Origin: an uncultured Spirochaetota bacterium
GTDB taxonomy: Bacteria > Spirochaetota > Brevinematia > Brevinematales > JAOACQ01
Length of the DNA stretch: 64,000 bases
Assembly: GCA_963768055.1 (NCBI GenBank)
Contig: CAVYGN010000002.1
Location: 1,216,001 to 1,280,000 of the forward strand
Reading direction: 5' to 3'
Positions within the stretch are counted from its first letter, which is position 1. Every line of letters starts with the position of its first letter. The notes below the pieces were generated by a model, which had not been told where the DNA came from, did not search any database, and saw nothing but the letters and a program-made list of their open reading frames with translations. Below, piece after piece: positions 2,884-36,198 of this stretch. The translations under genes and the position numbers were made by a program.

Positions 2884-2905
2884 TTTAGATTTTTGGAGGG
2901 ATTTT

Positions 2906-3217: not shown

Positions 3218-3226
3218 GAGAGATAA

Positions 3227-14496: not shown

Positions 14497-14775
14497 TCAG
14501 TTAGCCAGGGGTTGATCCCCCATTCCGGTAAATCCCGGCAGTTTTTCCTCGCTCATTACTACATAATCCTTGATAAGGTGCTTGATGTCGTTTATGAACG
14601 ACTGGGTCCATTCGGTATCATCGACGCCAACCATTGTCTCCAAGTTGAGTTCCCTTTTAAACTTCCTGAAACCCGTTTTGTTCCGAGGATACCTCTGTAT
14701 CTTATGAACCCCTTCCTCGATGCTATGAGCGATAAAAAAACTACTGGCGACCTTTACGGCGATTTTTTTTTCCAT
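14497..14775 (-). CDS. Hypothetical 92-aa protein, probably sigma54-driven and leaderless
   Basis: ATG lies at the predicted start site of the -24/-12 promoter; no family recognised. Confidence 0.55.
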   Translation of the reverse strand: MEKKIAVKVASSFFIAHSIEEGVHKIQRYPRNKTGFRKFKRELNLETMVGVDDTEWTQSFINDIKHLIKDYVVMSEEKLPGFTGMGDQPLAN

Positions 14776-17928: not shown

Positions 17929-18027
17929 ATTATAATCCCGGAGGGAATAAATATCAAAATTTTATCATCACCGGTTGCGGTGACCTTTTTTCGTATTTTT
18001 GACTTCATGCCGGAAAAAATGTATAAT
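17929..18027. promoter_or_regulatory. Divergent sigma70 promoters (activator gene / radical SAM gene)
   Basis: Minus: TTGATA(17957-17952)-17-TATAAT(17934-17929). Plus: TTGACT(17999)-17-TATAAT(18022). Confidence 0.75.
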
Positions 18028-18064
18028 TTATGCGGAAAGTTTTTCAAAAACAGGAGAAAAAAAT

Positions 18065-19225
18065 ATAAACGGTTCGATAATACTGGATAAAGAAAGGGAA
18101 TTTCAAGGGAATATAACCGATGGTAATATATCCTTCGGCTTAGTGAAAGATAATAATTGCTGCAGATTAGGTTTGAGTTTGTTTGAACATATATACCCCG
18201 AGGCTGTCCTGGAAATATCAGGAAAAAAGTTTAGCGTTCATGGCTGGTATAATGAGATAGTAGTTATAGACGACAGAAAAGAAATATCGATTAAAATTAA
18301 AACGAACGCTGAAAATGTTAAAGTCAGTTGGTGGGATGACAATTCGGATGATTATAAAGAAAAACAAACTTTTATCAAAAACATTAAGCCTAAATATGAG
18401 TACTATTTAAATTGGCACGTCACCAGGAATTGCAATCTTAGATGCGATTACTGTTTTATCGATCTTAAGGAAAGAGCTTCCGATAAAATTCCTACAATAG
18501 ATATACCCAGGCTGCGGGATGTTTTATCGAGATTCGATAAGCAAGTAAACATTAATCTATCCGGCGGAGAACCCTTTCTTATAAAAAATTTCGTGGAAGC
18601 ATGCTCTATGATGACAAAAAATCATTATATAAGTATTGCAAGCAATCTGACAAGCGACAGGGTAAAAGAATTGATCGAAAGTGTCGATGTAAAGCATATC
18701 GATTTCTTTGTTTGCTCGTTTCATCCTATCGAACTCTCCAAAAGAAACGCTGTTGATAAATTCATGAGGAATTATTACTTAATAAAAGAAGCCGGAATAA
18801 ACGCCAGGTTCTCGATAGTTCTTTGGCCCCCGATCATTGAACGCCTGCCCGAATATTTAAAAATGATTAACGATAAAAGCATCAGAATCTATTATGAACC
18901 TTTCCTGGGATTTTACAATAAGATGGAATATCCCGCAGCTTACACCGAAAAAGAACTTCGTTCTCTTGGAATAATAAAAAAGGATATTGGACAGACTTTT
19001 TACAGAAAAGGGAACTACTGCAACGCGGGTTTTAATGCCTGCATAATATTAGCCAACGGAGATGCGATCGATTGTTTCGAGAAAAAGAACAAAATCGGCA
19101 ATATCTATGAAGATATAAATTTCTTAAAAAAGATGGCCAAATGCGATCAAAGATTCTGCAAAAATCCTGTTTCCAAATTTCTTCCTATGCTCTATAATCT
19201 GGCAAAAGACCGGATATCGGATTAA
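18065..19225 (+). CDS. Radical SAM protein with N-terminal 'WW' domain and C-terminal Cys-rich twitch-like domain
   Basis: CNLRCDYC, SGGEPF, YCNAG...C...C; start uncertain (in-frame ATA 8 nt after AGGAG). Confidence 0.85.
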   Translation: MNGSIILDKEREFQGNITDGNISFGLVKDNNCCRLGLSLFEHIYPEAVLEISGKKFSVHGWYNEIVVIDDRKEISIKIKTNAENVKVSWWDDNSDDYKEKQTFIKNIKPKYEYYLNWHVTRNCNLRCDYCFIDLKERASDKIPTIDIPRLRDVLSRFDKQVNINLSGGEPFLIKNFVEACSMMTKNHYISIASNLTSDRVKELIESVDVKHIDFFVCSFHPIELSKRNAVDKFMRNYYLIKEAGINARFSIVLWPPIIERLPEYLKMINDKSIRIYYEPFLGFYNKMEYPAAYTEKELRSLGIIKKDIGQTFYRKGNYCNAGFNACIILANGDAIDCFEKKNKIGNIYEDINFLKKMAKCDQRFCKNPVSKFLPMLYNLAKDRISD

Positions 19226-20345
19226 TTCTGCCCGGCCTGCCTTTGTTTCTCATTCCTCAGAAATTCCAGCATATCCTTCCGGTCGATTCTTTTTGAAACA
19301 GGGTAGTATTTTGCGGTTATATAACCGTTCTCTTTCGGGAGCTGGATCCATATATCCAGATCAGTGTCCTCGACATAGTCATTTATGACAATTAACCGCT
19401 GTTTTTCAGGCGGTATCGCCAGTATAAGATTCTTCAAATGATCCAGCTTTTCTCTGTCCTTAAAATCTATTTCAATGTACTTCGTGCTATTATCTATATA
19501 TACTATATCTTTGTTGTTTTCACCCCTGAGTAATTCAAGGGCTTTCTCCTTAGGCAAATTCAAAGCCTCAGGGTGTTTTGTGACAAAGTACTCCGAATTC
19601 ATGTTATACCCGGGGATATTTTCTTTCTTGATTACAAGATCGCTTCTTTCTCCATGATATTGGTGGAAGACTTCAAGTCTTGAATTCACGACAATAGGGA
19701 TTTTTTTTTCATACAACATATAACCGAAGGCAATATCTTCCACTCCCCAGCCTTTGAAATTTTCATCGAATCCGCCAGCCGCTTCGAGGAATTTTCTGGG
19801 GATGGCCATATTGCAGGTAAAGACCTGCCCCCATGGAACATGATGGCGCTGTTGTTATAGGAAGCCGATTCGTAAAAAAAATATCTGTACTCCAGGATGT
19901 CGAAATTCCGGTTATCGAAGCGATTCTTTGTGAAAATATCGCCTCTTATTATTTCCTCGTAAGTGGTCGGCGTATTTAATAAAAGCCTGTTACCTATAAC
20001 GGCAATATCATTTTTCATCGAAAAGCATCTGTTCAGTTCGGATAAATAGTCCGGCCTTACGACAATATCAGAATCGATAAATACAATTATTTCACCTGCT
20101 GACTGCTTCCAGCCATGATTCCTGCATTTGGCCCGGCATGAATCTTTGCCCCTTTCCAGATAGAAATATTTTAAATCGTAATTACGGTTAACTCCTTTTA
20201 TATATTCTCCCGAATTGTCCGTCGAGCCGTCATCTACTACGATAACCTCATAATAGCCGTAACCCGGCTGGTAGTTTAGCGCCTCAAGAGTATTTTTCAG
20301 AAGAACCCTGTTGTTATAGGTTGGAATGACGAAGCTATATTTCAT
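19222..20345 (-). pseudogene. GT2 glycosyltransferase split by a frameshift near 19835
   Basis: SFVIPTYN, VVDDGS and FIDSD in one frame; PWGQVFTCN...GGFDENFKGWGVED continues in the -1 frame. Confidence 0.85.
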
Positions 20346-20391
20346 GATTTACAAACTCCCAGTTCATTGGAATATTCACTGTTAATATATC

Positions 20392-20464
20392 AGTATAAAT
20401 TATAAAAATATCCCGGTCAATCTCTCTATAATATTTTGATTATAGTGCGGTTTTATGCTATTAT
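20392..20464. promoter_or_regulatory. Divergent sigma70 promoters (GT2 / radical SAM)
   Basis: Minus: TTGACC(20420-20415)-17-TATACT. Plus: TTGATT(20436)-17-TATTAT. Confidence 0.7.
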
Positions 20465-20513
20465 AAATCAAAGTCGGAGCTTGATATGGTTAGTATTTTC
20501 AAGGTGGAATTTT

Positions 20514-21710
20514 ATGAAAGAAGATATATTTACAGCTTTAAAGCAAAGAAACGAAGCGGCTGTTTTTGAAGTTAAAAATAAAAAAACATTTTTAATACCT
20601 AAGGAAAGTATCCGGTTCAAATGGGATCCATTTATCTGGAAACCGAAAATTGTGATAGGAACTGCTGTTATAGAAGGTGATTATCACAATTTAAGCCTGG
20701 AGTACAAAGATAGAAAAGAGGATTTTGAAGGCTGGTACAAGGAATTCCGGTTTGACCTGAAAAACCCGGATGAAGATATGATTTTTACCGTTGACAGTGA
20801 AACAAGTAGCAGAAATTTAAAGATCGAATGGTGGATCGAAACCTCTGCCCCCGATGAATACGATGCGGCGCTAAGCTGGGTTATTACCGAAAAATGCAAC
20901 CTTGATTGTGAATACTGCATCTTCCATGCGCACGGGGTTTATCATACGAATAACGAGGCTATTTCCGCCATAAGGATTGAAGATTTATTGTCAACGATTA
21001 ATAAGACCGGTAAAAAGTTTTTAATAACATTCACGGGCGGCGAACCTTTTCTTGTCCCCAATTTTCTAGAGGCTTGCCAGTGTATAAGTGAAAAACATTA
21101 TATAGGGGTGGTTTCCAATTCAGTCCATCCCGACATAAAAAAGTTTGCCGAAACGATAGATCCCGGCAAAGTAGCTAATTTTTTATCATCACTGCATATA
21201 AAAGAATTTAAAAAAAAGAACCTGACCCAAAAATATATCGATAATGTCCTGCTTTTGAAGAAGAAGGGATTTAACGTCATTTCTACAGCCGTAGCTTATC
21301 CGCCCCTTTTATCGGAGATCGTTCATTACAGGGAATATTTCACCTCCAGGGGCATCGTTTTTAATACGGCATTTTTTATAGGCGAATACGATGGCAAGGT
21401 TTATCCCGAATCTTATACTCATGAGGAAATAGAAAAGTTCGGCCTGGAAGACAGGAAAATAAATAAAATTTTATCGCGTAAAGGCATGCTGTGCAATGCC
21501 GGGTACAGCGCGTTCGCAGTATGGGGCGACGGGACAGTTATTGTTTGTTATGATGTTCCTTCAAAAAGAGGTCATATTTATAGAAATATAGATTTTGACA
21601 AATATATTATAAAATGCCCTTCGGAACAATGCTCCTGTCCATTCCCGGATAATTACAAGGCGCTGTTTAACAGGGCGATAAATGAAAAGGCGCCGGTTAA
21701 AAGCGTTTAA
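20514..21710 (+). CDS. Radical SAM protein with N-terminal 'WW' domain and twitch-like C-terminus
   Basis: CNLDCEYC, TGGEPF, LCNAG...C...CPSEQCSCP; ATG at 20514 after AAGGTGG; paralog of 18065..19225. Confidence 0.9.
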   Translation: MKEDIFTALKQRNEAAVFEVKNKKTFLIPKESIRFKWDPFIWKPKIVIGTAVIEGDYHNLSLEYKDRKEDFEGWYKEFRFDLKNPDEDMIFTVDSETSSRNLKIEWWIETSAPDEYDAALSWVITEKCNLDCEYCIFHAHGVYHTNNEAISAIRIEDLLSTINKTGKKFLITFTGGEPFLVPNFLEACQCISEKHYIGVVSNSVHPDIKKFAETIDPGKVANFLSSLHIKEFKKKNLTQKYIDNVLLLKKKGFNVISTAVAYPPLLSEIVHYREYFTSRGIVFNTAFFIGEYDGKVYPESYTHEEIEKFGLEDRKINKILSRKGMLCNAGYSAFAVWGDGTVIVCYDVPSKRGHIYRNIDFDKYIIKCPSEQCSCPFPDNYKALFNRAINEKAPVKSV

Positions 21711-21773
21711 GTATTAGTCTTTTGATAAGAAGGATATATTATTATTTAAAATCTGTATCTGGAGCTGGTAATA

Positions 21774-23453
21774 ATGAAAACGATAAAATTCGACCTGCCG
21801 AATGGATATAAGATTACCGCTATAGAAAATACAAAAACAGTGTTCGACGAAATCTGGTATGATAAAATATATGAAAGAGATTTTATCATTAAGGAGGGCA
21901 TGAATATAGTCGATATAGGCGGAAATCAGGGATTTTTTTCCTTATATGCGGCAAGTAAAGGAGCAAATGTTTTTACTTTTGAACCCGAAGAAAAAAATTA
22001 TCAGCTGTTATTGGAAAATATAAAAAATAATAATCTCGAGGGTAATATTAAGGCCTATAAATTCGCCGTAACGAACCATGAAGGTTATTTAAATTTATTT
22101 GTCCAGGATTTTAATGAATATGTTGCTTCTGCTATAGTGTCTACCTCGAAAGAATTTTTAAAAAACATCAACAGATATAATAACAGGATCGAAATTCAAA
22201 AAGCGGCTTGCATTACCTTAAATAAATTGATTGATAAAATTGGAATAAACTCCATTGACCTGTTGAAGATTGATTGCGAGGGGGCGGAACTGGATATACT
22301 GAGAAGCGCCTCAATCAAGCAGTTTAAAAAAATAAAAAATATTGTTATGGAAACCCATAGTAATTATAAGGAAAAAGACTTGCTCTTTTCAATTAAAGCT
22401 GCCGGTTTTAATATTGTATCTTATAAAAGAATTTTGAAAAAATCTCAGAACGGCTATTTGTTTGCTGAAAATAATAATATAACGGAAAGGCCATCCTGGG
22501 ATTATCCGATAGGTGTTTTAAAAGGGATTCCTTATTCTAAAATATATAAAAAAGTTACCCTCGACGCCTCAGGAAGTTTTTCTACCGCTAAAAATAGCGA
22601 TAGATTGATTTATAAATGGAAGATTGACGGTGAAGCAATAGTCAAGGCTGACAAACCTGTTTTAAAGTATTTATTCAATAAAGCCGGTATGCATAATATT
22701 GAATTGGAAGTCATAGCCAAGAACGGGAAGAGCAATAAAATCAATAAAAATTTCTGGATTATTAAAAAGTCGTATTTTAATACCGGGGAAGAAGAGATTA
22801 TACAAAATGATTATAGTGAAGACAAAATATATGCTTTTAAAGGGACAAAATATTTTTCAATTAAAATCCCTGAATCGATAAATCCAGACCTGATCGGTAT
22901 TGGAATTGAATATAAAGAGCCGAAGAATTATAGCGGCATCTTAGAATTTAATGATGATAAAAAAGAGTTAAAAAATGATTTCAATGAAATTCAGTTGTTG
23001 GATTTTCCTCCCGGACTGGAAATAAAATATTCTGTAACGGCAAATGATTTCGAAGTATTTAGAATCTTCTGGTGGTGGCGTGAATTTGAAGAGAATATAT
23101 TAATTAATCCCGAAGAAATAAATCAGGAGGCGGTTTTATTAAAGCAAAAAAACAATGCGGCCCTGTATGAAGTAAATAATAAAGAGACATTTTTAATATA
23201 CCACAAATATCTTCCAAACCGGTGGGATCCCGTATTCCGGAAACAGAAAATTGTGATAGGAATAGCAGTTATGGGCGGTGATTATCAAAATTTATATTTA
23301 GAATACAAAAATCAAAAAGAAAGTTTTGACTCCTGGTACAAAGAGTTCCGGTTTGATCTTGAGAACCCTGATGAAGATATTATTTTTATGATAATAAATG
23401 AAATAAAAAGTAATATTTTGAAGATCGAATGGTGGATAAATTTAACATCCTGA
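21774..23453 (+). CDS. FkbM family methyltransferase + PKD-like domain + two 'WW' domains
   Basis: VDIGGNQG, FEP, LLKIDCEGAE; VTLDASGSF...YKWKID PKD pattern. Confidence 0.9.
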   Translation: MKTIKFDLPNGYKITAIENTKTVFDEIWYDKIYERDFIIKEGMNIVDIGGNQGFFSLYAASKGANVFTFEPEEKNYQLLLENIKNNNLEGNIKAYKFAVTNHEGYLNLFVQDFNEYVASAIVSTSKEFLKNINRYNNRIEIQKAACITLNKLIDKIGINSIDLLKIDCEGAELDILRSASIKQFKKIKNIVMETHSNYKEKDLLFSIKAAGFNIVSYKRILKKSQNGYLFAENNNITERPSWDYPIGVLKGIPYSKIYKKVTLDASGSFSTAKNSDRLIYKWKIDGEAIVKADKPVLKYLFNKAGMHNIELEVIAKNGKSNKINKNFWIIKKSYFNTGEEEIIQNDYSEDKIYAFKGTKYFSIKIPESINPDLIGIGIEYKEPKNYSGILEFNDDKKELKNDFNEIQLLDFPPGLEIKYSVTANDFEVFRIFWWWREFEENILINPEEINQEAVLLKQKNNAALYEVNNKETFLIYHKYLPNRWDPVFRKQKIVIGIAVMGGDYQNLYLEYKNQKESFDSWYKEFRFDLENPDEDIIFMIINEIKSNILKIEWWINLTS

Positions 23454-23460
23454 GCGCCGG

Positions 23461-25095
23461 TCAAGATCGTCTTTTAAGGCAGCCGTCCGCTAAATCATAT
23501 ATAATATCCATCATCTTAAGAATATCCGCGTTGTGAGTTATCGTCAGCGAAGTTATTCCCTTTTGCCGGGTATAAAGCAAATCGGTGATCTCCTTCTCCG
23601 TCTCCCTGTCCAGAGATGCTGTAATCTCGTCAAATATATAAATAGAACTATGAAAAGCGAGGGCCCGGGCAATACCGAGCCTCTGCCGCTCACCTCCTGA
23701 TATATCCACCAATCCCTCTGCAATAGTTGTATTAATACCCGCGGGCAGCCGGGCTAAAAAATCAAAAAGCCGGACCTTTTTCATCAAATCAAGGATTTCA
23801 TCATCTTTCAAACGTTTTTTAAGATCAATATTTTCCCGCAAAGTACCCGAATAAATCGGGATATCCTGGGAAATCATGACGATGCCTTTCCTGAAACTTT
23901 CAAGATCGAATGAGGAATGCGGAACTCCATCGATAAAGATACTTCCGGATGCCGGATCGAAGAGCCTGACCAGTAAAGCGGCAATTGTCGATTTACCTGA
24001 TCCGCTTTTACCGTAAATAGCGACATTTTTTCCATAAGGTATTTCAAGGGAAACATTTTTAAGTGCAAAATGGCTTTTTTGGTAAGAAAAGCTGACATTT
24101 TTGAATTCTATCTTTTGCCTGATACCATGAAATTCAAGGTCTCCGCCTTTTTCAATATCGTCGCTCAGATAATCGTATAAACGTTTTTTTGCACTTTTTA
24201 AACCCCGCTGGGAAATAAAGATGCCGGCCAGTTCATTTAAGGGTGTTATGAACCTTTCGTTAAAAAGAAGGCAGAAAACAAGCGTACCGATCGTAACGTT
24301 TCCCCGGACGACCTCGGGGATCATGAATATAAGTATGAATAATACGGGCGACCATACCATGATGTATATTATATTCCAGAGCATATTGCTGTAAAGAGAA
24401 TTTATTTTCTTTATATAGGACATTTTTGTGAGATTTTCATCCATATTTTGAATTACTTTCGATTTTAAAAGATCGAGCTTAATTGTCTTAATGCCAGAAA
24501 AAATATCCAGAAGATTTTTCCATAATACGTCGTATTCTTTCCCGATCTCGAAAGAGGTTGTTTCGTATTTTTTCCTCCAGATAAAAACCCATCCCGTAAA
24601 GGCTATAATAAAAATAAGATACATCTCGCTGATCAATGGAGCGAAATAAAGGAAAAAAACAAGCCAGAAACCTATTTGAACGAAATTCACAACCTCCATG
24701 ATCCTTCCCGACAGTCCGTCGGCGATGATCCTGCAATCTTCCATAGCCCGTTTTACGAACTCGCTGGAATTCCGCTCGAGAAAAAATGAGTATTTGTAAT
24801 GCATAACTTCAGTCAGAAAATCTTTACGTATATTTGAAACCAGATTCCTGTTGAGAAGCGACATAGTCCGGTCCCTTACAACAGTTAAAAGGTTCGTGAT
24901 GAAAACCGCGGCTATCGAAAGAACTGCTATTAGAATAAAAAGAGAGGTGTCCGGTTTTCTGAAAAGCTGGTCATAAATGATCTTCCATAGATAAAGACCG
25001 AAGGCTATGCTGACAGCAAGCAATAAAGAGATAAAAAATATAAATAAAAGAATAAAAAATTCTTTCTCAAGATATCGTATGAGATTTTTTTTCAT
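23461..25095 (-). CDS. ABC exporter (TMD + NBD)
   Basis: GKSGSGKS, ISGGERQR, IFDE; N-terminal TM domain. Confidence 0.93.
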   Translation of the reverse strand: MKKNLIRYLEKEFFILLFIFFISLLLAVSIAFGLYLWKIIYDQLFRKPDTSLFILIAVLSIAAVFITNLLTVVRDRTMSLLNRNLVSNIRKDFLTEVMHYKYSFFLERNSSEFVKRAMEDCRIIADGLSGRIMEVVNFVQIGFWLVFFLYFAPLISEMYLIFIIAFTGWVFIWRKKYETTSFEIGKEYDVLWKNLLDIFSGIKTIKLDLLKSKVIQNMDENLTKMSYIKKINSLYSNMLWNIIYIMVWSPVLFILIFMIPEVVRGNVTIGTLVFCLLFNERFITPLNELAGIFISQRGLKSAKKRLYDYLSDDIEKGGDLEFHGIRQKIEFKNVSFSYQKSHFALKNVSLEIPYGKNVAIYGKSGSGKSTIAALLVRLFDPASGSIFIDGVPHSSFDLESFRKGIVMISQDIPIYSGTLRENIDLKKRLKDDEILDLMKKVRLFDFLARLPAGINTTIAEGLVDISGGERQRLGIARALAFHSSIYIFDEITASLDRETEKEITDLLYTRQKGITSLTITHNADILKMMDIIYDLADGCLKRRS

Positions 25096-26839
25096 ACTTG
25101 TTATATTCCTTTGATTTTAAATAAAATGTATTATAACGGCCGCCTCTTTCGAGCAACTCTTTATGGCTGCCTTCCTCTACTACCCGGCCTTCTTCGAGAA
25201 CGAATATCCTGTCGGAATTCCTGGCCAGCTCGAGCCTGTGAGAAACCTCTATGATCGTAATCCCTTTTAACCTGCGAAGAGATTGTATAGTGCGGATTAT
25301 GCTTAACTCCGTTGCCGCGTCAAGAGCGGATGTTACTTCATCCAGGATCATAACCTTATTCCCGCGGGCAAGCATCCGGGCGAGAACCACTCTCTGTTTC
25401 TCTCCGCCCGAAAGGTTCTGGCCTCTTTCCAGCATGAGTGTATTTAGACCATCGGGAAGCTGTTTTATAAGAGTATCAAGCGAAACCTGTTCGCAGATCT
25501 CGTAAATTTGTTCATCGCTTAATTGACCGTCGGGATTGATATTGGCGCGAAGGGTATCGTTCAGGATAAAAGGCTCCTGGGGGACAACGCCGATGAGCTT
25601 TCTCAGGCTTCGGGTTTGAATATTGCGGATGTCCATGCCGTTGAGGAATATACTTTTTCCCGGCGCGTTGTATAGTTTAACAAGAAGCGAGATCAGGGTC
25701 GTTTTCCCTGCGCCCGAAGATCCCACAAGCGTACAGATGCTGCCGGTCGGGATAGAAAGGCTCAAATTCCTTAAAACAAAATTATCTTCCTTTACCTTGG
25801 GCATATTTCTTTTTTTTGACTTTCGTGCCGGGTATGAAAAATTCAGCCCGGTTATTTGAAGCCCTTCGCCTAACTCATTTATGATAAAGCCGTTGGTGGA
25901 TTCTTTCTTCAATCCCAGGAATGGGCGGATCTTTTCCCTGATCGGCCATAAAAAAAAACAGGCGGCGAAAGAATCAAAAAGAGTGCTGATGGGATAGATG
26001 ATAAGCCCCGCATATACAAGGTTGGTTATTATGTAACCTGGGGTATAACGGCCGGCTAAATATCCGTAGTAAGCAAAAACAAAGAAAACGACTAAACATA
26101 ACCGGACGGGCAATGATGCTCCTATGGCAAGAAGAGATTCGAATAATGCCGTTTTTACCGCCAGACGGCGTTCCCGGGTATTCAATTCCTCAAGTTGCCT
26201 GGTCTGCTCTTTATAAAGCCCGTAGCATTTGACTTCCCTGATTTTTAAAAACAGATTGTAAAAATGCTTGAAAATATCGTCGCGCCATTTCAATGAAAGT
26301 TTGCTGTAGTATGTTGAAAGTTTACTGAATAACCGGGTCCATAAAAAATACATCAGGATTGCGGACGTAAAGAGAAGGAAAATTTTAACTTCAAAAAAAA
26401 ACAGAAGGACGCCCAGTATTATTATAAGCTGCAATGCCGACATCAAAAAACGCAGAGAGCTCAAGACAAGATCCGAAAATTTTTCCATATCCGTTCCTAC
26501 CAGACCTATAATGGAGCTCGCCGAATGCCGTAGATAAAAAGAGTACGGATAATCGAGGAATTCATCCATGGAGCTCAGGCGTATGTTACGCGCGACGCCT
26601 GTACGGACATGGAATAAAAGAAACTGGATTACTACGTTAATAGCAATAGAAAAAACGCAGATCAGGATGATGATTCCGCAGAGCCTATACAACAGCAGTT
26701 CTGAAAAGCGGGGGATCAACTCGTCAAAAATAAGCTTGAATACCAATGGGCCCAGTAAGGTTACGCCCGCATAGACAATTGAAAGAAAAAAGATCAGAAT
26801 TATTAAATATGCATATGGTTTAAGAAATCGGAAAAGCAA
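25067..26839 (-). CDS. ABC exporter (TMD + NBD)
   Basis: GSSGAGKT, LSGGEKQR, ILDE, SHRL; no peptidase domain. Confidence 0.93.
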   Translation of the reverse strand: MLFRFLKPYAYLIILIFFLSIVYAGVTLLGPLVFKLIFDELIPRFSELLLYRLCGIIILICVFSIAINVVIQFLLFHVRTGVARNIRLSSMDEFLDYPYSFYLRHSASSIIGLVGTDMEKFSDLVLSSLRFLMSALQLIIILGVLLFFFEVKIFLLFTSAILMYFLWTRLFSKLSTYYSKLSLKWRDDIFKHFYNLFLKIREVKCYGLYKEQTRQLEELNTRERRLAVKTALFESLLAIGASLPVRLCLVVFFVFAYYGYLAGRYTPGYIITNLVYAGLIIYPISTLFDSFAACFFLWPIREKIRPFLGLKKESTNGFIINELGEGLQITGLNFSYPARKSKKRNMPKVKEDNFVLRNLSLSIPTGSICTLVGSSGAGKTTLISLLVKLYNAPGKSIFLNGMDIRNIQTRSLRKLIGVVPQEPFILNDTLRANINPDGQLSDEQIYEICEQVSLDTLIKQLPDGLNTLMLERGQNLSGGEKQRVVLARMLARGNKVMILDEVTSALDAATELSIIRTIQSLRRLKGITIIEVSHRLELARNSDRIFVLEEGRVVEEGSHKELLERGGRYNTFYLKSKEYNKYEKKSHTIS

Positions 26840-26848
26840 GGGATATTC

Positions 26849-28570
26849 CTATTCAGGCCACCAGGTAACCTGGTAAACCCGTTTTTGTGGAACTTCAACC
26901 CGGAATTCCATTAAGCTTTTGATGTCATTCCCGGTAAAGCCGAACTCTTTATAACCGTCATTGAGGGGGAAAAAGCGATCCCGGAATATCATTTTTCCTT
27001 CAAGCGATTTTCCCGTTGAATCGGATGAATGCACGGAGAAACATATCTTTATGCAGGCGGGTTCCCAATCTTTAGGAAGGTCCGCCAGGCTGACAACCAG
27101 AGCGGCTTCGTCTTTTATGCGGCAGATATGAGCGATAGATTTCTCACCCATGCTGCATTTCTTTGATCTGTCGCAATCAAGCTGTATCGGAAGAACTTCT
27201 TTCGGATTTTCTTTTGCAAACCAGCGCAGCTGGACATGAAAAGAAGATTTTGACTCGAGTGAAAAGCAGATGTCGCTTTCCTTAGGGAAACCGGGGAAAA
27301 ACATCTCCTGGTAAATTTCCTTTAACTCCGTCGCATTTCCATTAAAATCAAAAAGAATGCCTGAAGGTTCAGGATTTTTTGAAAAACCGGAAAGACTTAT
27401 TCCTATTCCGATAGCGCTGTAATGCCAGAAACTGGATATATCAGGAGATGGAATGACAAAATCCTCTTTTTCACGGACATCGAACTCATATCGCTGGTTT
27501 ATAACAGATAAAGGAAAAGCATTTTTCCGGGAAAAGTAGTCTTTCGAGAAGAGCCAGATCATCTTTTCGTCGCTATCACTGGCCTCATCCCTGTTTTTTT
27601 CCTTCGGGTCGATCACCTCCAGCGATACCCGATGAGAACCTTTTTCCATATTTTCAATTGTTATAACGGGATTGGGAGTAATTTCTCCCTGCAAACCGTC
27701 TATTCCGAATATGTATTGAAGATTCCCGCTGTCGGGGTTTATTACTGAAAAGCTCTGGCTTGCGTCGGCGATTATTTCACTCCCCTGGGCAGCTGTTTGC
27801 GGCAGGTTTAAGATAGCGACGGGGTTTTTACGGCTGTTTTTGACCTTTTGGGAGGCGCGAACGGCATATAAATATCCGACAGCAAAAATGTCATTATCTC
27901 TTCTTTGAATTTTATCATAAGTAACGACATCGAATCCCATATCCTGGACGCGCCGGTAGAGCGATTTCTCAGGATAGGCTTTGTGGGTTTCCATGACGAT
28001 CCGATCGACTCCTTCAAGATCATGCGAATCGGCGCCTGAAAGAATGTTTAATTCCGACCCTTCGGTGTCGATTTTGAGAAGAGAAATCCGTGGACTGTTT
28101 ATCTTATTCAAAAATCTTTTTAAGGTCAGGGCTTTGACCTTCGTTTTTTTAATCTTAGGCCTTTTATATTCCTTGAGAACATTCAGCAAAGGAAGAGATG
28201 CGGTAATGAGCCCCGAAGAGCTTAAATCTTCGAATTCGGGAATAAAGAGCGAAATAAATCCGTCTTCTTTCGATACTGCACACTGGAAAGGAGTAACTCT
28301 ATCCGAAAGTTTATTCCTCTTTATATTCGCACATAACAGATCGTAATTAAGCTTGCCGGGTTCAACTGCATAAACGAAAGCCCCGCGGTGTGCAGCGAAA
28401 AGAGAGAAGATGCCCTGGTTCGCTCCGAGATCGATAACTATATCTCCCTCGGCGATATGGTAATCCCTCTCGTAGAAAAGATTATCCCAGATCTCTTTTA
28501 TTATAGTTTCGGTATTGGGAATTAATTCGACAGTATAGCCATTCGGTAAGGAATGTATGGTTGTCTTCAT
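26849..28570 (-). CDS. FkbM family methyltransferase + PKD-like domain + two 'WW' domains
   Basis: IDLGANQG, VEP, LLKIDTEGSE, ADASQSF; paralog of 21774..23453. Confidence 0.9.
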   Translation of the reverse strand: MKTTIHSLPNGYTVELIPNTETIIKEIWDNLFYERDYHIAEGDIVIDLGANQGIFSLFAAHRGAFVYAVEPGKLNYDLLCANIKRNKLSDRVTPFQCAVSKEDGFISLFIPEFEDLSSSGLITASLPLLNVLKEYKRPKIKKTKVKALTLKRFLNKINSPRISLLKIDTEGSELNILSGADSHDLEGVDRIVMETHKAYPEKSLYRRVQDMGFDVVTYDKIQRRDNDIFAVGYLYAVRASQKVKNSRKNPVAILNLPQTAAQGSEIIADASQSFSVINPDSGNLQYIFGIDGLQGEITPNPVITIENMEKGSHRVSLEVIDPKEKNRDEASDSDEKMIWLFSKDYFSRKNAFPLSVINQRYEFDVREKEDFVIPSPDISSFWHYSAIGIGISLSGFSKNPEPSGILFDFNGNATELKEIYQEMFFPGFPKESDICFSLESKSSFHVQLRWFAKENPKEVLPIQLDCDRSKKCSMGEKSIAHICRIKDEAALVVSLADLPKDWEPACIKICFSVHSSDSTGKSLEGKMIFRDRFFPLNDGYKEFGFTGNDIKSLMEFRVEVPQKRVYQVTWWPE

Positions 28571-28587
28571 ATTTTATACTCCATTAA

Positions 28588-29556
28588 TCAGTTTTTTGCG
28601 GGCATATTCCTGTACCAATCATCCATCGGCAGGATATCTGCCGCGTTTCCATTCCTCACTTTATCAGGCCAGAAGGGATCGGAGACTAGAGGCCGGCAAA
28701 GAGCAACTAAATCCGCATCGCCATGAACAAGAATCCCTTCCGCGCTCTCCGGGGAAGCGATCCTTCCTGCGCCTATGACCGGAATATCGAGAATTTTTTT
28801 GATGGCGGAAAAATAGGGGGCAAAGCAAGCCTCCGGCTGTGTTTTATCCGGGCATTCGGAATTTTTTGGGCTCAAAGCCGTGCCGCCGGCAGAAACATCA
28901 AGGCAGTCCAGGCCGGCCTTTTGAAGCAATAAGCTCACAACCTTAGCCTCGTCGAGGATGAAACCCCCCGGAATAAGGTCTGTGGCGCTTATACGGTAAA
29001 AGAGAGTGAAACCGGAACCCACTCTCGATTTAATCGCTTCGACTGTCTCAATTTGGATAGATGACCTGGCTTCGAGCGGGCCGTTTAAGCGGTCTTTGCG
29101 TCTGTTGATCGCCGGAGAAAGGAGGTGCATGAAAAAACTATGGTGCGCGCCATGTATCTCCATTCCCGGAAAGCCTATTTCTTTAAGCTTTTCAGCGCAC
29201 TCGGCAAATGATTCGGGAATGGCGGAAATTTGAGATTCATTCATAGTGTTCACCCAGTCTCCCACGCCTGAAAAAACCTGGGGAATGATCCAGGCTCCTT
29301 GATCGCGGCATTCCGACATCAGCCTTTGCGAAGCTTCGCGAAAGGAGGGTGTATATAAATCCGAAAATCCGCCCGGAGTCGGCACAGGCATAACGATAAG
29401 ACCGGTTCCTCCCCTGGCGCGTTTTATATAGAACTCCCTGAATTCTTCGGACTGCGCCGGAATATTCAGGTATACCGGAGCGAACACGATCCGGTTGGAT
29501 AATTCAAAGCCGTCCCGAAGCTTGAAAGATGAAAAAAGCCGCCCATTTGTTTCCAA
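28588..29556 (-). CDS. Old yellow enzyme-family NADH:flavin oxidoreductase (atypical)
   Basis: NRIVFAP, RARGGTGLI, EIHGAH, NRRKD, ADLVALCRPLVSDP. Confidence 0.88.
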   Translation of the reverse strand: METNGRLFSSFKLRDGFELSNRIVFAPVYLNIPAQSEEFREFYIKRARGGTGLIVMPVPTPGGFSDLYTPSFREASQRLMSECRDQGAWIIPQVFSGVGDWVNTMNESQISAIPESFAECAEKLKEIGFPGMEIHGAHHSFFMHLLSPAINRRKDRLNGPLEARSSIQIETVEAIKSRVGSGFTLFYRISATDLIPGGFILDEAKVVSLLLQKAGLDCLDVSAGGTALSPKNSECPDKTQPEACFAPYFSAIKKILDIPVIGAGRIASPESAEGILVHGDADLVALCRPLVSDPFWPDKVRNGNAADILPMDDWYRNMPAKN

Positions 29557-29558
29557 AA

Positions 29559-30551
29559 TTAAACGCCTCCCCCATTAGTCCGAGCGGAAGGATTTATCTT
29601 TGTAACCATTGTATCGGTTATTCCCCCTGTGCACCATTCTTTACTGCAAACATGGGGTTCCGAAGGAAAATTCAATTCGGGATCGCTGATGTTGCCGATC
29701 TTTCCGGAATCACCGCACCAGCTCCTGTAGATATCTCCGCTTATATCGACGACAAGAAGTTCAAGACCTATGTAGCAGTTCCATCCTGGCCATGCATGCT
29801 TATTCTGAGTAATAATATCTCCCGGTTTAGTCAGTTCCTCGGAACCGTCGTCGTATACGAGCTTCATCAATCCGCGGTAGCTATCCCTCGTCCTTTTAAG
29901 TTTCAGCCTGCTGTTGATATCATGGCTTGCTTCAACGATCTGCTTCCTTTGTTCCGGAGTATAGGGATAAGGTTCGATAAAATCCCTCAGCACTATCTGA
30001 AGATCGATAGTTACATCGTCTGTTTCATTCAAGACCTTAAATGCGGCGTCAAGACATTCCTGAAAGTGGTCGGGATGAACCATTATGTTCACATGAGTAT
30101 AAACATCGCTTTTGATAAGGTTTATGACATTGATGAAGTGGTTAAGCTTAGTAAATTCGACGTGATAGCTTAAGCTGGCTTGAAAGAGATATTTTTTTGC
30201 CTCTTCCCAGAATATCAATTTCGGAGATCCGTTACTGCTGATGCTTACCTTCTGACCATTCTCTTTCTGACTGCGTATCAATGTGATAAAGTCCTTGAAT
30301 AGGGTCACTTCGCCGCCTGTATATAAAAAATATACTTCCTTTTTGAGTTTCTTTACGTAATGATCGATAATACGCTGGGAAAAGTCCATTATTTTATTGA
30401 TCGGCATGAAGGGGTAGGTCCCCGCATGCGTTCGCGGAGGGCAATATGAGCATAGAAAATTACACACATTGCTCACTCCCCAATCAACGATAAGTATATT
30501 CTCAGTCTTTTCGAACTGGTGCCTGAGCATAACCACATTTTTATCTTTCAT
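29559..30551 (-). CDS. Radical SAM protein with twitch-like C-terminus
   Basis: CNFLCSYC, TGGEVT, GWNCYIG...WC...C...C. Confidence 0.9.
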   Translation of the reverse strand: MKDKNVVMLRHQFEKTENILIVDWGVSNVCNFLCSYCPPRTHAGTYPFMPINKIMDFSQRIIDHYVKKLKKEVYFLYTGGEVTLFKDFITLIRSQKENGQKVSISSNGSPKLIFWEEAKKYLFQASLSYHVEFTKLNHFINVINLIKSDVYTHVNIMVHPDHFQECLDAAFKVLNETDDVTIDLQIVLRDFIEPYPYTPEQRKQIVEASHDINSRLKLKRTRDSYRGLMKLVYDDGSEELTKPGDIITQNKHAWPGWNCYIGLELLVVDISGDIYRSWCGDSGKIGNISDPELNFPSEPHVCSKEWCTGGITDTMVTKINPSARTNGGGV

Positions 30552-31621
30552 AATATAGATTCCTTATAGATCTTTACGACGCTATCCGCTTCCGTATTCT
30601 CAACCTGATGCAGGTTTATGAAATCGATATCCGCTATGATTTTATTGCTGATGAAACTATCGAATAGCTTTGGCGGGTTCGCTGTCCTGTATTTTTCCAG
30701 AAGATCGGGATAAAAACGACGGAATATTGACGTCACGATCGTTGACCGGTGCATTGGTGATTCCTCCCGGGGCTCTATAGTATTGAATTTTTGTCGGCTT
30801 TTGAGAGGGTAGAAAAAGGGACAATCAAAAAAATTCTCTTTCGGATCGGGCATACAGCTTTCAACCCCCGAAATTTTACAAGCCGCAGAAAATTCTTTGC
30901 AATATTCGAGACGCGCTGAAACTATTTCATCGATATCGCTTACCTGCTTTGTTAAAAAGTAGCATTGGATGGCGCTAAGACGATAATTGCAGCTCGCAAC
31001 CTCGAGTTTTCTCCGCGGTAAGGAAGGGCTTAATCCCCAATCTGATATAGCTTCGCATTCGGCTGCAAGCTCGGGGTCATTGGTGCTGATAAGGCCCCCT
31101 TCCCCGGAATTGATGATCTTTGAGCTTTGAAAGCTGAATGTGCCTGCATTCCCAAACGCGCCGGCCTTTATTCCATCCGCTGAACATGAGAAAGCCTGTG
31201 CGCAGTCTTCTATCAGGGCTATATTCCTGCTTCTGCAGTAATCCCTAATCTCGAAAATTTCCCGATTCATAAAACCGGAGAGATGGACGAGAATAACCGC
31301 CTTGACCCCGGACAGTTCCCTTTTTTTAAGAGATTCCAGGGTTAAACCAAAATATTCGGGGCTTACATCGGCAAAAACGGGTATCAGGCCGCAGTCAGCT
31401 ACGGCTGTCGCCGTTGCAATAAAAGACAGGTCGGGAATAATTACAAGGTCCCCCCTGTTTAATCTAAGGCCGCGCAGGGCAACTTCAATAGCAATGGTCC
31501 CATTGGTTACAGGTATAACATATTTACAACCAAGATAAGAGCTTATGCTGCTCTTGAATTCATGTATAACCTCTTCCTCAGGCTTGAAATGGGGAATAAA
31601 CGACTTAATATTATATTTCAT
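30548..31621 (-). CDS. DegT/DnrJ/EryC1/StrS PLP aminotransferase
   Basis: VTNGT, IEDCAQA, FSFQSSK (PLP Lys), GEGG. Confidence 0.92.
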   Translation of the reverse strand: MKYNIKSFIPHFKPEEEVIHEFKSSISSYLGCKYVIPVTNGTIAIEVALRGLRLNRGDLVIIPDLSFIATATAVADCGLIPVFADVSPEYFGLTLESLKKRELSGVKAVILVHLSGFMNREIFEIRDYCRSRNIALIEDCAQAFSCSADGIKAGAFGNAGTFSFQSSKIINSGEGGLISTNDPELAAECEAISDWGLSPSLPRRKLEVASCNYRLSAIQCYFLTKQVSDIDEIVSARLEYCKEFSAACKISGVESCMPDPKENFFDCPFFYPLKSRQKFNTIEPREESPMHRSTIVTSIFRRFYPDLLEKYRTANPPKLFDSFISNKIIADIDFINLHQVENTEADSVVKIYKESIL

Positions 31622-31623
31622 AT

Positions 31624-33000
31624 TTAAACCGGCATCATACGGTTTAATTCGTTTTTAAAGTCATTTAAAACGAAAGTATATTGAAGCTTGCCGTTTTTAT
31701 CTACATATGGCGGAAGGAGTATGTAAAATTGATTTTGGCCGGAAATACTGCAAACTTCCTTCGGGTCTAGCCTTATCCAGCGCTGGCCTTCATTGCTGAG
31801 AAAATAAACGGGTACAGGTAATGTGTTTACAAACTTATTCCTATCCTGGGTGCCGCGTATGCAGAGCCCGCGAATTGAATCGGAATTGAACCAGGCGAAA
31901 TGGTACTTATTATGGGGCCATTCCTGCCAGTCTTCGATCCTGATATTATAATGAATATTTTGGATTATATCGCGATAAACCGATAAAGAAGGGGTTTCCT
32001 TGAATTTGGAAAGATTGCCCTTTTCAAGGCCCAGCCCCCCGTAATCACGGAACTGATAAAGGGTTATACCCGCCAGCCATGGAAAATCGCCGCGGTTTAT
32101 TCTATCGTAGACGCTGCCCACCATCCGGGCCTGAGCTTCCGCACCGTCCACATCCGAATCTGTATTGAACTCATTGATAAATAGAGGTTTCAAGCTCAAG
32201 CCATTATGCCAGATCATATTCAGATAGCATTCTTCGATCAAACGCCACCAGTCTTCAACCGTACCTTGAAAATATGTGTTTTTGCTCTCGGGTGTAATGG
32301 TTTCTTCATAGGGCCAGGCATAGTGCAGGGATGCATATTTGTCAAGCGACCAATAGTCTGCTGTTTGAAGCGCTTCTCTCATCTCGTCCTGATTCAGGCG
32401 GAGAAACATATCGCAGACCACCTTATCCTTAACATAAAAATCGCTGCTTAAGCTGAAGACCGTAAATATGTTAGAAGAATTTGCCTTTACTATCTTGTGG
32501 CATCTTACAAAAAAATCGCTAACCTCTTTATAATTGTAGAATTTGTTGAAAGGGAACCATGTGCCGTTGCATTCATGGTTGACGCGAAGAAACACTCGTC
32601 CGAAAGTGGTGAGGGAACGGACCACCTTTTCAATATCCTGGTCGGACAGGGAAAGATCCATTGTAAGAGTCAAGTGGATATCCGAACCGTATCGTTTAAT
32701 ATCTTCGAATTGCTTTTGAGAATTCCCTCCCTCCACCAACAGGTTGAAGGGATTATAATCCTCATAATCATAACCCCAGGCAAAATTGATATCTTCGCCG
32801 TGTTCTATTTCCGATATCTTTTTATGGGGAGACCACTTTTCATGATAAGGATAATAGGCCTTAAGCACCTGGATGCCGTCGTGAATTCTTCCCAACTTTG
32901 AAAAGATATAATCCATGGGTACAAAATCGCTTCTTTCACTTTCATTAGACATTATCAGCATAGGTTTTTTTCGATGTAATGTGCATGGAAATGCCTGCAT
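31624..33000 (-). CDS. Glycoside hydrolase, GH26-like (clan GH-A)
   Basis: FLRVNHECNGTW acid/base motif and PLFINEF nucleophile motif; no signal peptide. Confidence 0.65.
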   Translation of the reverse strand: MQAFPCTLHRKKPMLIMSNESERSDFVPMDYIFSKLGRIHDGIQVLKAYYPYHEKWSPHKKISEIEHGEDINFAWGYDYEDYNPFNLLVEGGNSQKQFEDIKRYGSDIHLTLTMDLSLSDQDIEKVVRSLTTFGRVFLRVNHECNGTWFPFNKFYNYKEVSDFFVRCHKIVKANSSNIFTVFSLSSDFYVKDKVVCDMFLRLNQDEMREALQTADYWSLDKYASLHYAWPYEETITPESKNTYFQGTVEDWWRLIEECYLNMIWHNGLSLKPLFINEFNTDSDVDGAEAQARMVGSVYDRINRGDFPWLAGITLYQFRDYGGLGLEKGNLSKFKETPSLSVYRDIIQNIHYNIRIEDWQEWPHNKYHFAWFNSDSIRGLCIRGTQDRNKFVNTLPVPVYFLSNEGQRWIRLDPKEVCSISGQNQFYILLPPYVDKNGKLQYTFVLNDFKNELNRMMPV

Positions 33001-33012
33001 AATCCGCTCCTC

Positions 33013-34188
33013 TTATTGATAACGAGGCCGGGATAAAGCCTCTTTCCGGTATTCGGTCATGTTTCCCAGGTCCACTACGGGATCATCGAAAATCGGATCT
33101 TTCAAAACATCCAAGAACTTCTCGAACTCTTGATTAAAATTTTTCCACACCGCATTCGCTTCATATTCTCCCGTTTGCCAGGATTTCCAGTCATTGAGGA
33201 GGTTGAATATGAAAAGATCCACTCCAAAACTCTTTCCTATCCTGATCGCGTCGGGCATTTCGTGATAATTTTTCTTTTGCACTACGAAAGCGAGCATAAA
33301 ACGTCGTATTTTGCCCTCTCTCCTGAGAGAAGCTAAAAATTCAATATTAGAAAGAAGCTTTTCATAGGAGCCGTTAACGCGGATCTGTTTATAGGTTTCG
33401 GGGCGCGAAGCATCCAGCGATACTATAACTTCGTTTATATTCGAATGGATTTTTTTCATCTTCCGCCAGGCATCCGGTGTAAACAGGATCCCGTTGGATT
33501 GAATATTAATATCGAGGCGGGGATACTTTTCGCCGTCAAAGTTATAAAGAAAATCGGTAAAAATCTTCGAAATAAAGGGTTCGCCGGCCCCGGTCAGATT
33601 GAAACGGCCTATATTTTCAAAACCGTTTTCTTTAACCTCGCTGAGAAGTTTCTTGTGAATTCCAAGCCTGAATAAATATTCCGGGCCGCTCCTGTAGGTT
33701 ACTGTCTTTTTACGGCAGCTCGGGCAGGCCAGGTTACAGCTTTCATCATAAGCCAAATTGTAGTTGGCGGGGAATATATCCACTTTAGTATTTTCTTCAA
33801 GGATATACCGGATCCACGGAGCATATTTAGTTATCCTGCTGGCATGTACGGGAGATAATCCGGCGGGATTTTCCAGTTGTTCCCTTGTGTAAAGATAGTA
33901 GTTATCATTGCAATAAAAGGGGCATTGATGCCAGTCGCAGAAGGAATAACTGCCGTCTAAAATACTGGCCCGGATAGCCTGCAGTATATCGGAGTTCCAG
34001 ATTTCCTTTAGAGTTTTTTCAGAAAAATCGCCGATCCATTCGGGCATCCACGACTCGCTGCAGCACCTCACCCCGTAATTGCTGTGAATATCGACATTTG
34101 TAAAAGGCTGAAGGCAATATTTCCCGTGTAAATCCTTGGGTTTTTTTAAAGTCCCCTTATTGCTTTCAAATCCTCTTTTATTAATCAC
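33013..34188 (-). CDS. Radical SAM protein with N-terminal SPASM/twitch-like domain
   Basis: YCLQPF...RCC...IG...LKEIWNS...C..C precedes CNLACPSC; GAGEPF. Confidence 0.88.
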   Translation of the reverse strand: MINKRGFESNKGTLKKPKDLHGKYCLQPFTNVDIHSNYGVRCCSESWMPEWIGDFSEKTLKEIWNSDILQAIRASILDGSYSFCDWHQCPFYCNDNYYLYTREQLENPAGLSPVHASRITKYAPWIRYILEENTKVDIFPANYNLAYDESCNLACPSCRKKTVTYRSGPEYLFRLGIHKKLLSEVKENGFENIGRFNLTGAGEPFISKIFTDFLYNFDGEKYPRLDINIQSNGILFTPDAWRKMKKIHSNINEVIVSLDASRPETYKQIRVNGSYEKLLSNIEFLASLRREGKIRRFMLAFVVQKKNYHEMPDAIRIGKSFGVDLFIFNLLNDWKSWQTGEYEANAVWKNFNQEFEKFLDVLKDPIFDDPVVDLGNMTEYRKEALSRPRYQ

Positions 34189-35668: not shown

Positions 35669-35672
35669 AAGG

Positions 35673-35708
35673 TTACATCCTTTCCGGCAATGAATAATAA
35701 AAAAACAT
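35673..35708 (-). CDS. Candidate 11-aa small ORF MFFYYSLPERM
   Basis: GAGGGG RBS 9 nt upstream; lies in the sigma54 leader; 3' end overlaps the RBS of the next gene. Confidence 0.35.
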   Translation of the reverse strand: MFFYYSLPERM

Positions 35709-35794
35709 ATAAATTAACCCCTCACTATTATCAGGTATTGAAACTTTACATCCACATTTAAATTATTCGAAAAATCATAATTATACTTTTAAAT

Positions 35795-35810
35795 GGCAAA
35801 TGTTGTACCA
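35795..35810 (-). promoter_or_regulatory. sigma54 (-24/-12) promoter of the biosynthetic operon
   Basis: TGGTAC-AACAT-TTGCC. Confidence 0.75.
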
Positions 35811-35940
35811 ACCCAAAAGAACTCATAACATTCGATAGGAATTAAAATAATAATTGATTGCAGAACAATGAATTAGGATGTTATTTTTATTTGGGGACAA
35901 ATTTCCGATAAAACTTCAGCCGGCTGACCGGGAATAAAAC

Positions 35941-35990
35941 TGTTGAAAATATTCAACAAATGTTTACAGAATTCGACAATTCTTTGTCAG
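35941..35990. promoter_or_regulatory. Putative enhancer (UAS)
   Basis: TGTT-N10-AACA, TGTT-N10-GACA, GACA-N6-TGTC; resembles 14923-14971. Confidence 0.65.
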
Positions 35991-36198
35991 TGAATTATCG
36001 ACTCTTTCATTCCGGCTGTTCTTTCCAGCCTGCCGAAATATACCACGCGTCCTTCCATGCCCGAAGTCTTCGAGACCCTCACCCACTGAAATAAAGTTTA
36101 ATTTTTACTTTACTAGCGCCTTGAATATTTATTATTATTAACAAATAGAATGCATTTGTATCAGCGTCCCATAACCCGTTTAAAACCGGAGGTTTGCC

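Follow-up and report, generated by a model that had tools for sequence, protein, structure and literature searches.

Six copies of one domain on four enzymes

A stretch of 64,000 nucleotides from an uncultured Spirochaetota bacterium (assembly GCA_963768055.1, contig CAVYGN010000002.1; the whole stretch is called the window, and positions are counted from its first letter) was found to carry six copies of one domain of about 105–115 residues, here named D. The copies are borne by four enzymes of a single gene cluster, namely two radical S-adenosylmethionine (SAM) enzymes, rSAM1 and rSAM2, and two FkbM methyltransferases, FkbM1 and FkbM2. D is a member of a rare and unassigned sequence family, its predicted fold is a beta-sandwich, and its copies appear to combine an old tandem pair with later captures by other enzymes; this structural and evolutionary description, taken as a whole, is considered highly probable.

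The domain was first pointed out in an earlier note on this DNA, made from the letters alone. The strongest pair of copies, 20538-20837 in rSAM2 and 23139-23438 in FkbM1, again aligned without gaps at 62 identical residues of 100, with 219 of 300 nucleotides identical, and BLASTP gave 50% identity over 132 aa (E 4e-38). The four weaker copies were also located where the note had placed them, with WW or WF motifs ending at 18334, 23078, 27218, and 26858, and the common pattern it had described was borne out in that the six sequences form one alignment block with IxIG, [WY]Yx E[IF], and IxWW. All six copies belong to one domain family.

On the forward strand, D occupies 18065..18334 at the N-terminus of rSAM1 and 20514..20855 at the N-terminus of rSAM2. 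In FkbM1, also on the forward strand, the catalytic region (21774..22547; Pfam PF05050, TIGR01444) is followed by a weak PKD-like domain (22548..22739; PKD_4), and directly downstream of this lie two copies in tandem, A (22740..23090) and B (23091..23450). FkbM2, on the reverse strand, has copy A at 27197..27553, with a WF end, and copy B at 26852..27196, in which WW stands two residues ahead of the stop codon. The rSAM2 copy is of the B type.

Two profile searches of the 456 stop-to-stop open reading frames (ORFs) of the window were made. A hidden Markov model (HMM) of the strong pair only ranked FkbM2 (E 1.5e-4) and rSAM1 (E 4e-3) at the top; FkbM1 copy A was not detected by it (domain E 15), and no seventh copy was found, the best other ORF having an E value of 0.63. 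The second, external HMM drew on 92 instances of the domain in proteins not encoded by the window, relatives with at least 40% identity being excluded; these instances had been gathered with the six-copy profile, so that the test is partly circular and not fully independent. It gave E values of 2.7e-21 for rSAM2, 3.9e-20 and 4.3e-22 for FkbM1 copies A and B, and 1.8e-22 and 3.7e-22 for FkbM2 copies A and B, such that five copies fell between 3.9e-20 and 1.8e-22; the next ORF beyond the six copies scored 0.056.

The rSAM1 copy is the weakest (E 4.3e-6), with only its C-terminal ~60 residues matched by the external HMM (profile positions 47-110 of 112). Aligned to the family alignment with hhalign, it had a probability of 78.8% and an E value of 1.7e-5 over 59 columns. 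The longest ORF of rSAM1 begins at a TTG at 17999; an AGGAG motif at about 18052-18056 precedes an ATA at 18065, and P0058, a relative with 80% identity to rSAM1, begins exactly at the residue of 18065. Because of this motif and the P0058 start, the true start of rSAM1 may be the non-standard codon at 18065, giving a shorter D copy.

Sequence family and domain architectures

The view of the earlier note that the domain is unassigned held in database searches. The six copies had no Pfam match at E<=10, the tandem D fragment alone matched 0 Pfam families at E<=1, and among the matches listed for 45 family proteins none at E<=1 fell on the D region. PDB sequences searched with the six-copy profile returned noise only (HIV protease, AP2 factor; E 0.13 or worse). 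In the ESM Atlas, the best score for the rSAM2 N-terminus, 0.81, fell within the range reached by shuffled sequences and was not usable; an Atlas cluster containing NPCBM (0.78), under that value, was disregarded. Among the papers listed by literature searches on FkbM with radical SAM, PKD, PPC, carbohydrate-binding module (CBM), or beta-sandwich domains, none was found to describe D.

When 1.84 billion representative proteins were searched with a profile, 55 reached E<=1e-3, of which 36 were within E<=1e-10 and 4 within E<=1e-30. The signature of D is LPxxWxP … FNG … L..WYxEI … D..F … IxWW. Aromatic positions are strongly conserved: W42 in 83/106 instances, Y78 in 79/109, W108 in 101/107, and W109 in 92/106. 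When sorted by protein length, matched positions, and Pfam content, 33 of the 55 proteins were FkbM–(PKD-like)–D–D proteins of 553-577 aa, and the usual unit is thus a PKD-like–D(A)–D(B) cassette at the C-terminus of an FkbM methyltransferase. Another 3 were FkbM proteins with a single D, and 3 had D in front of a radical SAM domain (rSAM2 itself, the 80%-identical rSAM1 relative, and P0075). N-twitch radical SAM enzymes ending in D–D numbered 2, and one protein each represented FkbM–PKD–D–D joined to an N-twitch radical SAM enzyme (P0010, 913 aa), a polysaccharide deacetylase of the carbohydrate esterase family 4 (CE4) type ending in D–D, a family 2 glycosyltransferase (GT2) followed by D, and an M43 peptidase/VWA/PKD protein ending in D (P0083, 1867 aa; marginal, E 3.7e-4). 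The remaining ten comprised nine short proteins or fragments that lack a catalytic domain and one spurious repeat protein.

The movement of D between enzyme classes that the earlier note had proposed is thereby seen outside the window as well, on N-twitch radical SAM, polysaccharide deacetylase, and GT2 proteins; at least five catalytic families have come to carry D. In P0010, the radical SAM part and the cluster gene at 33013-34188 are related (26% identity over 345 aa), so that this fusion links two enzyme types of the cluster. Relatives of the 33013-34188 enzyme found elsewhere either end in D–D or follow an FkbM–PKD–D–D part in a fusion, and the fusion proteins P0010, P0061, and P0069 tie FkbM to N-twitch radical SAM enzymes. 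For the catalytic core of rSAM2, 153 relatives were found at E<=1e-3, and the 119 non-self matches listed each cover 55-77% of rSAM2; we read this as a core that normally stands alone and probably gained D here.

The PKD-like domain of FkbM1 matched Pfam PKD_4 with an E value of 5.1e-4, under the gathering score, and PKD_4 matched 17 of the 45 family proteins at E<=1. The possibility that D is itself a PKD repeat was rejected, as the PKD_4 and PKD_3 matches (FkbM1 residues 259-322) all lie upstream of the beginning of D at about residue 323.

Among species-representative genomes, a set in which the genome of the window itself was not found, there was a single related locus, in a metagenome-assembled genome of an uncultured member of Spirochaetaceae. 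Its FkbM–PKD–D–D gene (1962-3644 of that locus; 48% identical) has two frame changes and lies near a contig end, next to genes for a glycoside hydrolase of family 8, a ricin-lectin protein, a STAND ATPase, and a LacI/AraC regulator. No radical SAM partner or other cluster genes were present nearby, and there was no other D-bearing gene within 13.6 kb. Two FkbM relatives, P0006 with two D and P0008 with one D, share the longest-contig figure 57151, an unconfirmed hint of paired FkbM paralogues elsewhere.

Predicted fold

AlphaFold2 modelled the D–D tandem of FkbM1 as all-beta with eight strands per domain (pLDDT 89.7) and the single D of rSAM2 likewise with eight strands (pLDDT 89.4, pTM 0.81); DSSP assigned eight strands and one 4-residue helix to each domain. 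The beta-sandwich suggested in the earlier note is therefore what these models predict. As regards whether its weak copies share the fold, FkbM1 copy A has the same eight-strand topology as copy B in a confident model.

Foldseek searches of PDB with the single D gave no match at E<=1e-3. The best neighbours were the ColG collagen-binding domain (CBD) s3b (TM-score 0.61) and the PPC domain of a Bacillus anthracis collagenase (0.59), and the ColG/PPC matches overall had TM-scores of 0.57-0.62, root-mean-square deviations of 3.1-3.7 Å, E values of 1.9e-3 to 7e-3, and identities of 9-11%. Next came p24 GOLD domains (TM-score 0.52-0.57), followed by CUB domains and viral jelly rolls; the GOLD and CUB scores come close to those of ColG/PPC. 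The tandem model matched paired beta-sandwiches, including the SID1 ectodomain, tandem ColG s3a-s3b (5iku), tandem CBM51, and CUB pairs, with TM-scores of only ~0.3 because the domain orientations differ. D is therefore taken to be new as a sequence family but of a fold already known, and it is possibly a very distant relative of PPC.

History of the copies

A FastTree tree was made from 110 domain instances over profile-aligned columns; because of the small size of D, supports other than those given here are not to be relied on. Copies in the first position of the tandem (type A) and in the second position (type B) were separated with a support of 0.935, which indicates that the tandem is old and has been inherited as a unit. 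The B clade also takes in P0061 and P0069 with both of their copies, and P0072 with its first. FkbM1 copy A lies in the A clade, and the FkbM2 copies are placed beside those of P0044, A with A in the A clade and B with B in the B clade. The rSAM2 copy is sister to FkbM1 copy B (0.976), within the B clade of the closest relatives of FkbM1 (0.967), and the N-terminal copies of rSAM1, P0058, and P0075 form a group (0.83) inside the A clade. The statement in the earlier note that the domain had been shuffled six times overstates the case: only the radical SAM copies are separate captures, and the FkbM copies are an old tandem pair inherited as a cassette.

At the DNA level, similarity between the 5′ end of rSAM2 and the 3′ end of FkbM1 runs from about 20538 to the codons for WWI at 20837 and stops exactly there; ahead of the rSAM2 ATG there is some weaker similarity. 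From this similarity, the rSAM2 domain evidently arose by a DNA-level duplication of ~300 nt from the adjacent FkbM1 B domain, copy B being the likely donor, and rSAM1 appears to carry an older, eroded A-type copy. The strong pair has a synonymous divergence (dS) of 0.99, so the duplication is not very recent, and a ratio of nonsynonymous to synonymous divergence (dN/dS) of 0.25, which points to purifying selection on both copies. Such a duplication between neighbouring genes would be a clear example of domain capture. In-frame sequence upstream of the rSAM2 ATG (…LIWLVFSRWNF; 20470-20537) bears a faint likeness to the last part of FkbM1 copy A (…FRIFWWWREF; 23060-23138). The duplicated DNA may have included the A/B junction, with a linker of ~30 nt lost later.

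Gene cluster and its surroundings

By ORF listing and Pfam and NCBIfam scans, the cluster comprises 14 genes at 17999-35668. It begins on the forward strand with rSAM1 (17999/18065-19225), a radical SAM enzyme with an N-terminal D, followed on the reverse strand by GT2 (19222-20345), which is split by a frameshift into two overlapping ORFs. The N-terminal ORF of GT2 (19686-20345, reverse strand) has Glycos_transf_2, and the C-terminal ORF (19222-19809) has the part with GGFDENF…WG.ED; the frame changes near 19800-19835, where a run of five G is found in the coding strand at about 19826-19834, and the split gene is either a pseudogene or the product of a sequencing error.

On the forward strand, rSAM2 (20514-21710; N-terminal D) and FkbM1 (21774-23453; C-terminal PKD-like domain and D–D) come next. 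The FkbM1 catalytic region matched PF05050 with an E value of 1.7e-18 over residues 47-199 and TIGR01444 with 98 bits (cutoff 37.7). On the reverse strand are two ABC exporter half-transporters (23461-26839), FkbM2 (26849-28570; C-terminal D–D), and a flavoenzyme of the old yellow enzyme type (28588-29556; Oxidored_FMN). The latter (322 aa) aligned to Oxidored_FMN only over profile positions 140-339 of 342 and, with the start of the profile unmatched, its N-terminal part is shortened or divergent. rSAM3 and then a DegT/LegC-like aminotransferase stand between the flavoenzyme and a 458-aa protein (31624-33000, reverse strand), which had no match in Pfam, NCBIfam, or PDB sequences; its Atlas neighbours were unnamed Bacillota and Spirochaetota clusters (score 0.95), and a cluster of glycoside hydrolase family 26 at 0.89 is a lead only. 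The cluster ends with a radical SAM enzyme whose SPASM/twitch domain is N-terminal to the core (33013-34188, reverse strand; NCBIfam N_Twi_rSAM, 79 bits, under the cutoff of 170) and a B12-type radical SAM enzyme (34181-35668).

None of the radical SAM, aminotransferase, or ABC proteins reached a curated cutoff in its NCBIfam matches, and the pathway is therefore not a known one. The ABC pair contains only ABC_membrane, ABC_tran, and generic P-loop/AAA matches in Pfam; its best NCBIfam matches, under cutoff, are the NHLP bacteriocin exporters TIGR03796/03797, and it also resembles MsbA, HepA, glucan, and PglK exporters.

The cluster is flanked on one side by fumarase and a sigma-54 activator containing a LacI-type sugar-binding domain, and on the other side by tricarboxylic acid cycle genes (aconitase, succinate dehydrogenase, succinyl-CoA, 2-oxoglutarate dehydrogenase, and citrate synthase). 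The GC content is 35-37% at 18-24 kb, the left part of the cluster, compared with 41-50% in most other 2-kb intervals. This low GC content at 18000-24000 and the interruption of central-metabolism genes suggest that the cluster was acquired horizontally.

Comparison with known modules

The closest structural neighbour of the single-D model is the PPC/clostridial collagen-binding domain (ColG s3a and s3b; PDB 1nqj, 5iku, 5sv5), which is likewise a beta-sandwich of ~110 residues. PPC and CBD domains belong to secreted proteases, unlike the D carriers FkbM, radical SAM, GT2, and deacetylase, which are presumably cytoplasmic. The sole peptidase carrier is the marginal member P0083, a large M43 peptidase in which PKD and then D stand at the C-terminus in a PPC-like manner. 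The accessory segments of ColG are ordered as a PKD-like domain, s2, and then the CBDs s3a-s3b. Tandem CBDs following a PKD-like domain at the C-terminus, as in the PKD-like–D–D part of FkbM1, are described for this enzyme in PMC4356367 (structure 5iku), and a collagen-binding domain is presented in PMC6168687 as a non-catalytic segment for substrate binding. By sequence, PPC (PF04151) did not match D, either with the six copies at E<=10 or with the 45 proteins at E<=1, among the first 25 of 48 families listed.

CBMs resemble D in being accessory beta-sandwiches on carbohydrate-active enzymes or transport proteins, and tandem CBM51 was among the structural matches of the D–D model. Wzt ABC transporters have CBMs in the cytoplasm that recognise the end of a glycan; according to PMC11231755, these act on the nascent terminus made by a terminating methyltransferase or kinase. 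The Wzt CBM sits on the transporter, whereas D sits on tailoring enzymes; no Wzt chain was among the Foldseek matches listed for D, and no CBM family matched D by sequence (six copies, and among the families listed for the 45 proteins).

The recognition elements of peptides that are synthesized on ribosomes and modified after translation (RiPPs), called RREs and typified by PqqD, are small non-catalytic domains that recur on the tailoring enzymes within a single cluster and often stand N-terminal to radical SAM enzymes; their fold is a winged helix made up of three helices and a three-strand sheet. The idea is the same as for D, one small domain on several tailoring enzymes of a cluster. The likeness to an RRE drawn in the earlier note does not extend to the fold, however; the D models are eight-strand and all-beta, for which D was rejected as an RRE, and no precursor peptide was identified in the cluster. 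GOLD domains (p24/TMED, Sec14-like) are eukaryotic and share neither sequence similarity nor a Pfam match with D; we regard their resemblance to the D models as probably generic to beta-sandwiches.

Proposed function and alternatives

We tentatively propose that D holds the tailoring enzymes on one shared substrate, most probably of a glycan type, and this possibility should be taken with reserve. D would be a non-catalytic binding module that keeps each tailoring enzyme on a common, large or membrane-anchored substrate, as CBMs and the PKD and CBD segments of collagenases do for their enzymes. The substrate would most likely be a glycan or glycoconjugate assembled on the cytoplasmic side and then exported by the ABC transporter of the cluster. 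The module has also reached tailoring enzymes besides FkbM that serve the same sort of pathway, namely small STM4011/viperin-like radical SAM, N-twitch radical SAM, CE4-type deacetylase, and GT2 enzymes. Inspection revealed no evident signal peptide in the D carriers, which together with their SAM or Fe-S chemistry argues that they should be cytoplasmic.

Several observations favour a glycan. The carriers of D elsewhere include GT2 and polysaccharide deacetylase, and the cluster itself encodes a DegT/LegC-like sugar aminotransferase and a GT2. Vibrio cholerae RfbT, an O-antigen methyltransferase, was weakly matched by 16 of the 45 family members. The likeness of the ABC pair to MsbA, HepA, glucan, and PglK exporters (and to bacteriocin exporters too), the activator of the sugar-sensor type next door, the strongly conserved aromatic positions of D, its CBD/CBM-like predicted fold, and the precedent of the cytoplasmic Wzt CBMs (PMC11231755) point in the same direction.

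Other observations weigh against a glycan-binding role. No CBM or PPC family of Pfam matches D within the searches given above, and the fold match is moderate (TM-score 0.57-0.62) and of a kind common to GOLD, CUB, and viral jelly rolls, which include binders of proteins or lipids. The cluster has one glycosyltransferase, which is frameshifted, and no priming transferase or polymerase was seen among the window ORFs scanned with Pfam. Five radical SAM enzymes with SPASM/twitch features and ABC matches of the NHLP type are equally typical of RiPP pathways, every NCBIfam match of the radical SAM enzymes, the aminotransferase, and the ABC pair is sub-cutoff, and the sole genomic locus examined elsewhere, that of the Spirochaetaceae genome, is a frameshifted orphan in a different context.

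A more specific version of the shared-substrate proposal, which we consider doubtful, is that D is the recognition module of an undescribed class of gene clusters in spirochaete-like and uncultured bacteria. A tag common to radical SAM, FkbM, glycosyltransferase, and deacetylase enzymes, PKD–D–D or D, would send them all to a single scaffold of non-peptide nature, of which types A and B would read two different features. If true, glycans or glycolipids would have their own equivalent of what RREs do in RiPP pathways.

Several other explanations are possible for the repeated occurrence of D. It could be an assembly module that binds another D, a common scaffold protein, or the ABC exporter and gathers the enzymes into a complex in the way of docking or cohesin-dockerin modules. 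GOLD and CUB, among the structural neighbours of D, are protein-interaction modules, and several enzymes of one pathway bear the same D; further, the P0010 fusion of FkbM–PKD–D–D with an N-twitch radical SAM enzyme shows physical proximity in at least one organism, and the rSAM2 copy has been kept close to its neighbour's B domain under purifying selection. We consider such assembly unlikely. Nothing indicates a partner D-protein beside the nine short proteins or the numerous FkbM–D–D ones (their contexts being uninspected), the orphan FkbM–PKD–D–D gene described above has no D-bearing neighbour, and the old and divergent A and B types suit two binding specificities as well as homotypic contacts. 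A complex prediction for FkbM1 D–D with rSAM2 D gave a score of 0.00 against a mark of 0.32; run without controls, it counts neither for nor against binding.

Recognition of a peptide substrate would be expected if the cluster makes a RiPP and D recognises the precursor leader in place of a winged-helix RRE. Consistent with this are the five radical SAM enzymes, including SPASM/twitch and B12 types, the sub-cutoff best match of the ABC pair to NHLP bacteriocin exporters, and the action of EreM, an FkbM enzyme, in a RiPP pathway (PMC9259500). According to that paper, however, EreM matched only the FkbM family in PfamScan, without another recognised domain. No precursor gene was found, nothing remarkable being seen on inspection in the small ORFs of a 530-nt gap (35669-36198), and a 92-aa ORF (14497-14775) lies outside the cluster and has no Pfam match at E<=1e-5. 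With the all-beta fold of D, its fusion to GT2 and polysaccharide deacetylase elsewhere, and the sugar aminotransferase within the cluster also arguing otherwise, this explanation is rather improbable.

It is less probable still that D is a passive appendage, stabilising or spacing its carriers without a specific ligand and spread by duplication and fusion. D has no known ligand, the N-terminal half of the rSAM1 copy is without recognisable similarity, and three FkbM representatives bear a single D, all of which would fit this explanation. The purifying selection on the duplicated pair, the conservation of aromatic and proline positions across 110 instances, and the independent gain of D by at least five catalytic families argue against it. 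If D were only a generic beta-sandwich spacer, the finding would shrink to a new family entry of the Pfam type. Finally, the refuting case raised in the earlier note, a single recent duplication with the four weak copies resembling it by chance, has a negligible likelihood of being true, for, even with FkbM1 copy A missed by the strong-pair HMM, it is ruled out by the external-profile scores (1e-20 to 1e-22 for FkbM1-A, FkbM2-A, and FkbM2-B; 4e-6 for the rSAM1 N-terminus) and contradicted by the confident model of FkbM1-A with the topology of copy B.

A PKD and PPC-like accessory segment of a kind known from secreted proteases appears here to have been reused on presumably cytoplasmic enzymes, an unusual location for it. 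A non-catalytic domain common to tailoring enzymes is a strong clue to the substrate recognition of their pathway. RREs have eased the discovery of RiPP clusters, and the D profile could likewise aid genome mining for this rare type of cluster with five radical SAM enzymes.

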